Source: Podospora anserina (lineage: Eukaryota). From it: DNA of 64,000 bases. Positions 19,136-27,864 of this stretch are shown piece after piece. Location of the stretch: positions 2,542,001 to 2,606,000 of the forward strand of contig CM030337.1 of the NCBI GenBank assembly GCA_017654855.1, given 5' to 3'. The notes beneath the pieces are model-generated. The model made no database searches, was not told the DNA's origin, and worked only from the letters and a program-made list of their open reading frames with translations. Positions within the stretch are counted from its first letter, which is position 1, and every line of letters starts with the position of its first letter. Made by a program: the position numbers and the translations under genes.

Positions 19136-22100
19136 ATGGGCTCACAGGTTGAACCAGGCTCGCTTTACTCTCTTGAGTCCCTATCGACAGAGGACCAACT
19201 TCTCTTCAACCGCTTTGGACGTGGAGAAACCATCCCACTCCCCTTCACAAGAGTCCACCATGCATTCGAGTCGATAGCTTCACAACACCCCGGCGCAACA
19301 GCGGTCCGACATTTCGATGGCACCTCAATGACATACGGAGAACTTGACCGCCATGCCAACATACTGGCCAACGAGCTTCTCACTCGGTTTTGTTTCAAGA
19401 GAGGGGCGCGAGCGGTATTGGTGTACTCGCGTACCATCGAGATGGTCATCTTTATCCTCGCTGTGCTCAAGGCAGGAGGGCAGTACGTTCCCATTGACGG
19501 CGGCATTATTCCAATCGAAGCCCTCAGTCACGTAGTCTCGGACTCTTCGGCAGATATCGTCCTTTGTTTGCCCAAATACTCCGACAAGGCCACCGAGGCA
19601 TGCCGCCAGGGACCAGCCATTCTCAGTCTCAACCTCTCCAGCGACATCTGGACATCAGGCGTTGCCAGCAGACCAAACGTGGACGTTCAGCCTGAGGATG
19701 GAGCCTACGTTATTTACACCTCGGGTACGACTGGGCGGCCAAAGGGCGTTGATGTCACACATCATGGTGTTTGCAATTCCTTGTTGGTTGAGCCTGCAAA
19801 GCTAGAGATCACTGTCGGCACAAAGGTGGCACAACAGTTGAGCGTGGCTTTCGACATGGGTAAGTAGCCATCCATTCTAGGCCCGAGTTTCCAACTAACA
19901 ACCCTAGGCGCTTGGGAAATTTTAGCGACCGTCATGAACGGCGGAACTCTGTACATCAGAGGCAGCGGAAACGACCTTTGGAACGAGTGCCTCAAGCAAG
20001 TCGACGTCGTCATCTCCACCCCGTCCGTAGCGACCAAGCGGTTCCCCAATTACGAAGACTTCCCCAACCTCAAGACGATCGTGGTGGGCGGCGAGCCATG
20101 CCCAAAGACCCTTGCTGATCATTGGGCGGAGCACACTGGGACGAGGTTCCTGAATGTCTGTGGTCCCACGGAAATCAGTGTCCTCAACACCGTCCACGTC
20201 CACAAGCTTGGCGGACCATTGACCATCGGCAAGCCGAATCCCAACACTACACTCTACATTCTGGACGAGGACGAGAACCCAGTCAAGATTGGCGAGGCTG
20301 GTGTCATGTGGGTGGGAGGAGTCGGTGTCTCTAGGGGGTACCTCAACTTGCCCGAATTGACTGCGACGAGATACAAGCTCGACAAGTTCACCAGAGATGG
20401 CAGGATGATGTTCAACACTGGGGACCTGGTCCGATGGAATGCGGACGGATGCCTCGAGACACTTGGTCGTCGTGATGATCAAGTCAAGATCGATGGCTTC
20501 CGTGTTGAGCTAGACGGTGTTTCCCGCGCCATCGAGTCTTGCCCGGATGTGATCAAGGGTTGCGCTCTCAAGATTGACACGAGTCTGTGGGGCTTCTACT
20601 CTGCCATTCACCCCATTGACCAGGCCGAATTGCACAAGGCAGTCAGTGCCCAGCAGCCTTTCTATGGGGTCCCCAAAGTTTGGCACTATCTTGGCCCAAC
20701 AATTCCACTCACGGCGAACGGCAAGATCGACAAGCGTGTGCTGCGGGAGTTGGCGACCGCTGTCAACTCGGGTTCTCAGCGGACAACTCCACCCGCAGAA
20801 GTTGGGCTTCTGGCTCCGAGCATCACCGACGTGGAAAAGGCGTCTGTTCCGAGCAGCATCAGCTCGGCTACCGACGAAAAGCCCGACCCCGTTGCACCCA
20901 TCCCGCCCAAAAAGGGGTTTCATGGTTGGCGCTGGCTGCGTCACCGCGGCCTATCGGCTTACCGCAAGCTCTTTGGCATTATTTTTGTTGCCAACGCCAT
21001 TGCCTTTGTTGTCATGCTTTGGAAGAGCCGAGAGTCCAACTTTGAGCTGCCCCTCGACAATCTAGCCACGGCCGTGAGTGCAAACTTGCTGGCATCTGTC
21101 TTGCTTCGCCAGGACTATGTCGTGAATGTGGTTTTCTGGCTTGCAACTCGAATGCCAACATCCGCACCCCTGGCTATCCGACGACACCTCGCTCGTGTCT
21201 ATCACTACGGCGGGGTCCATTCCGGAGCATCTGTTGCCGCTTCGCTTTGGTGGCTGGTGTTTACTGTGGCTGCCACTCGCCGTCTTGCTCCAACAGGGTC
21301 TACCCAGCCGTCTCAGCGAATTGCGGTCCTGGTGTTGACTTACTTGATCTTTGCACTCCTCGTCGCCATATTGGCAATGGCATGGCCTAGCATCCGTGCC
21401 AAAATGCATGATCAGTTCGAGTGGACGCACCGCTTCGCGGGTTGGACCGCCCTGGCTTTGGTCTGGGCTCATCTCATGGTCGTCACCGCGGCGTTGCCCA
21501 GCACCCAGCCCTTTGGTGCCGCACTTGCTCGGACGCCTGCGTTGTATCTCCTCAGCTTGACAACACTCTCCATCGCCGCTCCGTGGATGCGTCTCCGCCG
21601 CGTCAAGGTGGTTGCCGAACCCCTGTCAAGCCATGCAGTCCGCTTGCACTTTGACTTCAAGACCCCACGAGAATGTTCATCTTTGGGTATCCGCATCACC
21701 GACCGCCCCTTGGTGGAATGGCACGCTTTCGCGGCTATCCCTGAGCCGGACAACAAGCCAGGACTCTCCATTCTTGTCTCCCGTGCTGGTGACTGGACAG
21801 GTCGCATGATTGACAACCCACCAACATATCTTTGGACGAGGGGTGAACCAGCCTCGGGAGTGTTGGCTATTGCACCTCTTTTCAAGAAGATTGTTTTGGT
21901 GGCCACGGGCTCTGGAATCGGTCCTTGTCTTCCAGTCATCATGGAGCGCAAGGTTCCTTGCCGGATCCTGTGGAGCACCAAAAACCCACTCAGGACATAT
22001 GGCCAGGGTATAATTGATGAAGTGAAGAGGTGTGATGATAGAGCTGTCATCTGGGATACGGACAGTATGGGAAGACCAGACATGGTTCACTTGGCTTGGG

Positions 22101-22225
22101 AGCTGTATCATGAGAGCGGCGCCGAGTGTGTATGCATTGTCAGCAATGCAAGGACAACTAAGAGGGTCGTGTATCAGTTGGAGGCGAGAAGAATCCCTGC
22201 CTTTGGACCGATTTGGGATTCGTGA
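19136..22225 (+). CDS. tmpL: TmpL/NPS12-type NRPS-like protein: adenylation domain + ferric-reductase-like TM region + FNR-like FAD/NAD(P)-binding domain, no T domain
   Basis: YTSGTTGRPKG, FDM|GAWE (intron 19860-19907), GPTE, NTGD, GRRDDQVKI.GFRVEL, NGKIDK. About 6-7 TMs with HSG and THRFAGW histidines, then EWHAFA, VATGSGIGP, AFGPIWDS. Confidence 0.88.
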
Positions 22226-27700: not shown

Positions 27701-27864
27701 TTGGCCGGCTTCGCCTCGGGCTGGTTCGGCCGTTCCTTGACAATGATGTGCGAAAGACACTCTCCAGCCAGCCCGTACAGCAGCAGCAGTCCTCGACAGT
27801 CTTTCAGGAGCAGGCCACTCCCACATCTGTCCATGTGCCCATCGTCCACGAACCAAAAATCTGA
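24701..27864 (+). CDS. Multi-pass membrane protein containing a divergent HET/TIR-like domain (start at 24701 or 25051)
   Basis: ORFs 25024-26166 and 26224-27864 are joined by intron 26122-26184. Three hydrophobic segments. Motifs FWCSANCM, TYSISDIIRTAQHVAVVVG, WGERVWTLPEIVLS, HPGDRVYVLMGLL. Confidence 0.75.

Follow-up and report, generated by a model that had tools for sequence, protein, structure and literature searches.

Podospora anserina carries three closely spaced genes on a stretch of chromosome 6 that we analysed over its full 64 kb (hereafter the window, to which all coordinates refer): Pa_6_70, a gene of the tmpL type, Pa_6_60, which encodes a CorA-like protein, and Pa_6_50, which encodes a HET-like protein. 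A first-pass annotation had proposed that all three form one membrane signalling or defence module. We found that the CorA-like/HET-like pair, and not the trio, is very probably the conserved unit. These two genes are linked in 30 of 36 informative homologous loci and rise together in a table column that we read as vegetative incompatibility, whereas the tmpL-type gene was found in none of 80 loci and does not respond in the non-self transcriptome. Homologues that are unlinked and not co-expressed, the outcome named in advance as speaking against a module, are what we observed for tmpL, while the other two genes stay together and rise together. On balance we lean towards regarding Pa_6_60 and Pa_6_50 as a membrane unit of two genes that is old, inherited together and regulated together, with divergent transcription out of a single short promoter region and with the tmpL-type gene as a bystander.

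Conservation of the gene pair

An alignment of 26 HET-like proteins was used to fetch 80 metagenome loci including flanks of up to 10 kb at either end, together comprising 803,526 bases. Loci with at least 3400 nucleotides (nt) of upstream flank were regarded as informative, which gave the 36 loci mentioned above. Many loci are near-duplicates, and dereplication at 90% nucleotide identity yielded 46 lineages, 18 of them informative. A CorA-like gene is present in 31 of the 80 loci, and tblastn and a 63-member hidden Markov model (HMM) find the same 31. In 30 of these it is located upstream of the HET-like gene and is divergent from it (head-to-head), which corresponds to 13 of the 18 informative lineages; in the remaining locus, L028, it lies downstream on the same strand. 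The search with the spliced P. anserina TmpL protein, in contrast, had no tblastn match at E≤1e-3 in any of the 80 loci. TmpL is absent also from the 25 of 30 paired loci that extend at least 1.9 kb past the 3' end of the CorA-like gene, and these cover 12 of the 13 paired lineages.

Among named HET-like sequences, those closest to the paired lineages come from Triangularia, Achaetomium, Echria, Fusarium, Cryomyces, Coniosporium, Lentithecium, Lecanora (68%) and Tricladium (51%), with rough placements at 43-68% identity. They represent Sordariomycetes, Dothideomycetes, Lecanoromycetes and Leotiomycetes, where four names were checked against the taxonomy and the others are placed in the class to which we take them to belong. 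As a control for synteny, open reading frames (ORFs) of at least 70 amino acids (aa) from 19 representative loci and the window were clustered. Wide sharing is limited to two families, the HET-like (20 of 20) and the CorA-like (14 of 20); any other family that recurs in three loci or more consists of frames on the strand opposite the HET-like gene, and the rest are confined to one or two loci. Apart from the pair, then, no microsynteny is left.

The same association is seen among named fungi. In nine Sordariomycetes (P. anserina, Triangularia setosa, T. verruculosa, Parathielavia, Achaetomium, Echria, P. fimiseda, Thozetella and Thermothielavioides terrestris) the HET-like and CorA-like proteins are encoded on contigs of identical size, which indicates the same contig and not adjacency. 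The T. verruculosa pair is found on a contig of only 9,224 bp, and the Achaetomium locus tags are consecutive (47424/47425). Among the matches listed, ten further species have a CorA-like match with no HET-like match among the 120 listed, and five Sordariales have a HET-like match with no CorA-like match. The distance matrices of both proteins are correlated (Mantel r 0.89 for 22 taxa, with 0 of 2000 permutations as high; r 0.63 when only the 13 metagenome lineages are taken), and most clades are common to the two trees. Co-inheritance predicts such a correlation, but any pair of genes passed on vertically would be expected to show it.

The unpaired lineages, like the limits on contig size and on the Mantel correlation just given, weigh against a fixed pair. 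Five of the 18 informative lineages are unpaired (L049/L070, L052/L054, L067/L071, L075-77 and L078), and six informative loci without a divergent neighbour (L052, L054, L070, L071, L076 and L078) have no CorA-like HMM match in their flanks. In a HET-like tree of 58 tips the paired lineages are found in at least five deep clades, and four unpaired lineages fall into two clades, one of which also holds L028; L078 was too incomplete for placement. As far as the sequences can be read, loss or relocation of the CorA-like gene in two clades would be the simplest reading.

Transcripts and expression of the pair

Transcript evidence was taken from assembled contigs of four runs from four studies (X1, X4, X5 and X12). 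The contigs are unstranded and the runs are presumed to be RNA; their contigs do carry GT..AG or CT..AC joints, and depth was not used for ranking genes. ORFs, splice joints and transcripts agree that all three genes are intact, as first proposed, and are transcribed, and splice-bearing contigs of both pair genes are present in 4/4 runs.

The coding sequence of the CorA-like gene (PODANS_6_60, protein P0121) spans 22430..24040 on the minus strand and consists of five exons (24040..23979, 23917..23843, 23749..23595, 23534..22860 and 22806..22430), which encode 447 aa with a match of 98-100% to P0121. Its introns 22807..22859, 23535..23594, 23750..23842 and 23918..23978, all with CT..AC joints, are supported by 4, 3, 4 and 4 of the four runs, respectively, and agree with the annotated protein. 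The HET-like gene (PODANS_6_50) is located on the plus strand (coding sequence 25051..26121 and 26185..27864) and encodes 916 aa, with a match of 100% to P0001. Both matches are to proteins of P. anserina S mat+ and place the window on chromosome 6. Its 63-nt intron (26122..26184) is removed in 4/4 runs to give the product ...NQD|TYSISDIIR..., and homologues read DTYSISD across this exon junction, as the RNA splice predicts. The public model (P0001, 922 aa) splices differently at 26122-26184 and has, in place of the conserved TYS, ten inserted residues within the HET-like domain core. The coding sequence of the HET-like gene shows a single mismatch to the run contigs, a C>G difference at 27264 that all four runs share, and the four runs may represent one strain. 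At 28168 and 28201 (both T>A) the contigs of all four runs likewise differ from the window; the three mismatches are either strain differences or reference errors.

A head-to-head spacing of about 660 bp had been given for the two genes. This distance does separate the CorA-like ATG at 24040 from an ATG at 24701, but the latter opens only a 94-codon upstream ORF that is out of frame; the main ATGs are 1010 nt apart. The transcripts start much closer to each other. According to the contigs, the CorA-like transcript reaches 24104 and the HET-like transcripts begin at 24332 (X5), 24601 (X12) and 24760 (X4), which puts the starts about 230 nt apart, while the published transcript ends of the pair are 571 nt apart (PMC9801653 supplement). 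Contig ends and published ends together delimit a divergent promoter region at 24105..24700 that is common to both transcripts.

Responses to non-self were examined in the published P. anserina transcriptome table (PMC4835503, Table1.XLSX), which lists four bacterial contrasts, one unlabelled column named 'Colonne1' and a versatility bin. We read Colonne1 as vegetative incompatibility, because the only other contrast of that paper is vegetative incompatibility, with RNA pooled from 1 and 3 h. In this column Pa_6_50 is at +4.16 and Pa_6_60 at +3.45; Pa_6_50 has no entry in the bacterial columns, and Pa_6_70 has none in any of the five response columns. On the Pa_6_50 side, Pa_6_10 is blank and Pa_6_20, Pa_6_30 and Pa_6_40 are at -2.67, -3.43 and -2.46, respectively. 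On the CorA-like side, Pa_6_80 is blank and the orphans Pa_6_90 and Pa_6_100 are at +5.11 and +6.21. The pair thus rises together in the column read as incompatibility, while the genes beyond Pa_6_50 drop and tmpL stays flat. With a versatility bin of 10, against 3 and 4 for the two pair genes, Pa_6_70 differs from them in phyletic spread.

Several points reduce the weight of this co-induction. Colonne1 carries no label and its identity is deduced; the two orphans are up in the same column; and Pa_6_60 alone falls after 6 h with bacteria (-3.27 and -2.49), so that the regulation of the two genes is not identical. As 10-18% of genes move in each contrast, the joint induction of the pair is supportive and not decisive.

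The CorA-like protein

The label CorA-like was borne out by structure prediction. The AlphaFold2 model of Pa_6_60, computed from 63 sequences, has a predicted local distance difference test (pLDDT) score of 84.2, and Foldseek against the PDB gave 71 matches at E≤0.001, of which all rows listed are CorA channels. The best match is 8tmc_C (1.6e-9, about 400 columns aligned, probability 1.00). The predicted fold resembles the CorA Mg2+ channels of Thermotoga maritima, Methanocaldococcus jannaschii and Campylobacter jejuni (8tmc, 3jcf, 4ev6, 8zah), with which it has in common an N-terminal alpha/beta domain, a long stalk helix and two C-terminal transmembrane (TM) helices; hydropathy places both TM segments at the C-terminal end (344-362 and 383-401). 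In contrast to these channels, Pa_6_60 shows only 9-15% identity, scores below the Pfam cut-off and carries GTQ in place of the GMN of the pore mouth. The Pfam CorA family (PF01544) scores P0121 at 22.2 bits, below the cut-off of 27 bits, and 5/5 relatives scanned are likewise below it; a precomputed PF01544 label exists for 6 of 20 CorA-like relatives. The motif FGTQFF, with GTQ at the GMN site at the end of TM1, is invariant in 18/18 sequences (Pa_6_60 and 17 close relatives), and GMN is found in 1 of 63 wider relatives.

A profile search with the CorA-like family retrieved 2660 clusters at E≤1e-3, 736 at 1e-10 and 111 at 1e-30. The word-index protein search returned 20 relatives, from Sordariales and Thozetella only, and understates the family in comparison with the profile search and the loci. 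Judged from sequences and predicted structure, Pa_6_60 belongs to a large fungal group of putative CorA-fold proteins that lack GMN. An expansion of relatives of the family has been reported for a lichen fungus (PMC3897900). NCBIfam and PADLOC gave no match to either Pa_6_60 or Pa_6_50; when two CorA-like family members were tried against the CorA-like model of PADLOC, P0128 matched weakly (E 0.013) and P0121 did not match.

Another fungal CorA-like protein is genetically tied to vegetative incompatibility. The available part of PMC8940278 describes mimpvic32 of Morchella importuna as a polymorphic candidate vegetative-incompatibility gene with a CorA-like domain (765-773 aa), and its linked candidate mimpvic33 as lying 13 genes away with no recognised domain. 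The likeness of mimpvic32 to Pa_6_60 is one of description only.

The HET-like protein

Pa_6_50 is predicted to consist of an N-terminal beta domain, a first TM segment (TM1, ~144-167), an alpha/beta domain (~230-580), TM2 and TM3, and a C-terminal beta domain. Its AlphaFold2 model (88 sequences; pLDDT 86.2, predicted template modelling score (pTM) 0.84) contains helices at 144-167, 594-619 and 639-668, and hydropathy agrees with three TM segments. Five lysine or arginine residues precede TM2 and, by the positive-inside rule, would put both the HET-like and the C-terminal domain on the cytoplasmic side. Of 8000 candidates scored, at least 566 belong to the family at E≤1e-3; they are mostly named 'hypothetical' and are distributed over Sordariomycetes, Eurotiomycetes, Leotiomycetes, Dothideomycetes and lichen fungi; two sources call homologues 'Heterokaryon incompatibility domain-containing protein'. 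The alignment of 88 sequences has 28 invariant and ~130 nearly invariant columns, with long invariant blocks.

The central domain had been labelled HET/TIR-like, which we could sustain as a remote likeness but not at the level of Pfam. For residues 228-585, 30/30 of the nearest named clusters in the ESM Atlas carry HET (score 0.94, 174 shared features). As a reference for profile comparison we used a true HET protein (Pfam HET 7.8e-32) from locus L054, where this canonical HET gene (L054:18960-20747, plus strand) lies ~7 kb downstream of the unpaired HET-like gene. The hhalign alignment of the 88 members with it brings the FW..C and ISD..R blocks into register. Presuming that the order of HET blocks is a strand-ending aromatic, W..D..C, I.D....A and RxWTLxE, Pa_6_50 would have the motif blocks in the same order as true HET proteins and would keep the glutamate of WTLxE. 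This residue, E405 of the WTLPE block, is retained in 88/88 HET-like sequences; the aspartate of WID is absent. Among the rows of a structural alignment of residues ~257-476, three are TIR domains, those of SARM1 (9ugj_F; Z 3.9, root mean square deviation (rmsd) 3.8, 100 residues aligned), RUN1 (7rts; Z 3.5, rmsd 5.1, 112 aligned) and RPP1 (5teb_A; Z 3.0, rmsd 5.1, 111 aligned). A remote relationship between HET and TIR domains is stated in the available parts of PMC4986451 and PMC12881547.

Against this stands that none of 26 members scanned reaches the 22.5 bits of Pfam HET (PF06985), the best being P0088 with 15 bits (E 0.032), that the hhalign match has an E value of 0.16 only, and that the TIR rows, with Z no higher than 3.0-3.9, stand among other Rossmann-like folds of similar Z. 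Foldseek with the whole 922-residue model gave 0 matches in the PDB at E≤0.001, the wide VIA structure search with the same model had the hairpin of TM helices at 588-674 as its sole listed match (Z no higher than 7.4), and a profile of 88 HET-like members had 0 matches at E≤10 among PDB sequences. For the C-terminal domain (669-892) the best ESM Atlas score was 0.77, with nothing usable. We read the central domain of Pa_6_50 as a putative, very divergent relative of the fungal, TIR-related HET domain that lies outside the Pfam family.

The tree of the HET-like genes departs from taxonomy, with Rhinocladiella and Nannizzia (Eurotiomycetes) and Cudoniella (Leotiomycetes) nested among Sordariomycetes, and one metagenome carries two distant members of the family. 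This mismatch suggests old paralogy or gene transfer and would fit the patchy distribution.

Possible function of the pair and alternative explanations

The products of the two genes are probably functionally coupled. In the model that we consider, both proteins would act together at one membrane, with the HET-like domain, its C-terminal domain and the N-terminal domain of the CorA type on the same cytoplasmic side. Sensing or triggering would fall to the HET-like protein, and the CorA-like protein would form a pentameric cation pore that is not selective for Mg2+; opening of this pore would shift the ion balance or the membrane potential during a cell-death-related response to stress or non-self. 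The model draws on the folds, the predicted common cytoplasmic side, the common promoter, the co-induction and the tightly linked partners known for HET genes (het-B Bh/Bp, PMC10890737). By analogy and from the predicted structures, the HET-like protein probably either controls the GMN-less CorA-type pore or is controlled by it; that control runs specifically from the HET-like part to the pore is possible, if doubtful.

Two considerations count against the model. Contact between the proteins, or a common pathway, is without direct support, and the HET-like family is strongly conserved, unlike the polymorphic het loci; that both proteins are well conserved across classes speaks against a classical het locus. 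A complex prediction for HET-like residues 228-890 and CorA-like residues 10-340 scored 0.00 in two runs; it made no use of alignments and had no controls, and it carries no weight either way.

The adjacency could also have been kept for regulatory or neutral reasons, such as a bidirectional promoter that is hard to split, with unrelated jobs for the two proteins. Transcript starts only ~230-570 nt apart would agree with this, as would the missing sign of contact, the drop of Pa_6_60 alone with bacteria and the two HET-like clades that manage without the neighbour. It is nevertheless unlikely in our view, since no other neighbour survives such divergence, 30 of 31 cases share one orientation, and both genes encode membrane proteins whose large domains are predicted to face the same side. 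Fungal divergent gene pairs that are kept in evolution also tend to be functionally linked.

We give about the same low credence to a housekeeping ion-transport complex, in which a CorA-type transporter with a regulatory or assembly subunit would have nothing to do with cell death or non-self. The full CorA fold, the strong purifying conservation of the HET-like family and transcription in every run speak for it. However, the GMN of the Mg2+ pore is missing in close and nearly all wider relatives, the distribution is patchy (bins 3 and 4, not core) with a HET-like tree that does not follow taxonomy, and both genes are strongly induced in the column read as incompatibility.

That all three genes constitute one system of sensor or enzyme, messenger and channel is extremely improbable: the tight packing, a tmpL end 204 nt from the CorA-like stop, a CorA-like contig that reaches 21949 within tmpL, and the signal molecule proposed for TmpA, TmpB and TmpL in the available parts of PMC4804170 and PMC2766074 would favour it, but tmpL is missing from all 80 loci, including the 25 paired loci with enough flank, shows no value in any of the five response columns, in one of which the pair is at +4.2 and +3.5, and falls into bin 10 against 3 and 4, and the available account of tmpB neighbours in Aspergilli (PMC4804170) names them without mention of a CorA or HET gene.

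The two-gene unit that we favour can be compared with known systems. Like the HET/partner loci het-B (Bh/Bp) of P. anserina and het-c/pin-c and het-6/un-24 of Neurospora, it combines a HET-type gene with a tightly linked partner and is induced in what we read as incompatibility. It differs from them in that the domain of Pa_6_50 scores below Pfam level, is set in a protein with three TM segments between two beta domains, and is conserved across classes and not polymorphic. Its partner is a CorA-fold protein, for which the literature that we found on such loci offers no counterpart. In some bacterial type III CRISPR systems a nucleotide messenger gates CorA effectors, and there are also signalling systems built on TIR domains. 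The likeness to these systems lies in the idea of a signal-making or signal-sensing protein encoded beside a membrane effector of the CorA family; the differences are the eukaryotic host, the lack of a specific sequence tie and that no messenger, cyclase or nuclease partner was found. A literature search combining CorA with HET or heterokaryon incompatibility found no description of the pair, subscription journals and closed supplements being outside its scope; the closest item was the CorA-like candidate gene of Morchella. By comparison with these systems, the pairing of a HET-like with a GMN-less CorA-like gene would be new, and a HET gene with a linked partner, or a CorA-family effector beside a signalling protein, would be of known kinds.

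P. anserina has 132 HET-domain genes, and how HET domains cause cell death is 'currently unknown' (PMC10890737). A HET-like protein with a fixed, conserved CorA-fold partner provides a concrete and genetically tractable hypothesis for HET killing in a model fungus, and the pair supplies a first functional context for the large GMN-less fungal CorA-like family. In a more far-reaching version, the HET-like domain would be an active TIR-like enzyme or switch whose product, or whose conformational change, opens the GMN-less pore, which would make the pair a eukaryotic, membrane-built counterpart of bacterial signal-gated effectors; as the pair is old and widespread, it may then reflect an ancestral way in which HET domains kill cells. 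We consider this version rather improbable.

The upstream ORF before Pa_6_50

The leader of the HET-like mRNA contains an upstream ORF on the plus strand at 24701..25033 (94 codons when spliced; intron 24912..24959, with the joint present in 4/4 runs; stop at 25031-25033). Its stop lies 17 nt short of the main ATG, and its frame differs from that of the main ORF. The peptide has an HGxD/N-I-x-P-D motif of the HGGN type, and the homologues P0019, P0104 and P0106 carry this motif in an in-frame N-terminal extension. In 14 intergenic gaps (13 loci and the window) an HGG-coding 8-mer is found seven times, in each case in one of the loci, and a k-mer comparison of these promoters yielded nothing besides this coding-like word. 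The upstream ORF may be what remains of an N-terminal exon that was lost; alternatively, it may serve regulation and be present on longer transcripts only.

The tmpL-type gene and other features of the window

Pa_6_70 is located on the plus strand (19136..19859 and 19908..22225) and encodes 1013 aa. Its 48-nt intron is supported by a spliced contig of run X1; the gene is partly covered in X1, X4 and X5 and uncovered in X12. The assignment to the TmpL type holds. The protein has an N-terminal adenylation domain of the non-ribosomal peptide synthetase type, a hydrophobic middle and a C-terminal flavoprotein part. Pfam AMP-binding spans both exons (5.4e-36 and 4.7e-23) and is the sole Pfam family at E≤0.01 in either of them, so that there is no thiolation or condensation domain at this level; NCBIfam AA-adenyl-dom scores 5.1e-51 from exon 2 alone. 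The part from 20900 onward matches no family at E≤0.1. In the C-terminal part, the flavin adenine dinucleotide (FAD) motif RLHFD (residue 820) and the nicotinamide adenine dinucleotide (phosphate), NAD(P), motif GSGIGP (residue 909) are found letter-exact. Both are described for TmpL in the available part of PMC2766074. A simple hydropathy scan detects strong segments only at 595-613, 713-731 and 751-771, where six TM helices would be expected for the TmpL type.

Domain build and both motifs are shared with TmpL of Alternaria brassicicola and Aspergillus fumigatus, TmpB of A. nidulans and ChNPS12. Nothing in Pa_6_70 is unusual in comparison with these proteins, and a link to the CorA-like/HET-like pair was not seen outside Podospora. 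The P. anserina table lists the gene as 'Putative Nonribosomal peptide synthetase' (PMC4835503). TmpA, TmpB and TmpL have been proposed as makers of signal molecules, and the conserved neighbours of tmpB in Aspergilli include an enoyl-CoA hydratase gene, as given in the available text of PMC4804170 and, for the former point, of PMC2766074. From its sequence, Pa_6_70 appears to be an ordinary gene of the TmpL/TmpB/NPS12 type that stands next to the pair by chance in Podospora. With tmpL outside the unit, studies of tmpL need not consider its CorA-like and HET-like neighbours.

The distance of about 200 bp given initially between tmpL and the CorA-like gene is confirmed, with 204 nt from stop to stop. 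A contig of the CorA-like transcript (X1) runs to 21949 and so covers the last ~280 nt of the tmpL coding sequence on the opposite strand; this would make 21949-22430 a convergent overlap of the two transcripts. Directly upstream of tmpL, a spliced contig at 18207-18645 (joint 18454/18510, GT..AG) represents a further transcribed gene. Decayed relics had initially been suggested at 15.8 kb and 28.3 kb. An ORF at 15764-16564 on the plus strand, which may be the first of these, encodes the C-terminal part of a Peptidase_S9 or alpha/beta-hydrolase (1.3e-9). The ORFs near 28.1-29.4 kb have zero Pfam matches, and this stretch is overlapped by the 3' end of the HET-like transcript. Beyond it, an ORF at 29964-30341 on the minus strand encodes a fungal rhodopsin domain (4.1e-17). 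The G+C content near the three genes is ordinary (46-58%). A long AT-rich tract extends over positions 45000-58000, with G+C down to 14.5% and a strong GC skew, and looks like the outcome of repeat-induced point mutation of old repeats.

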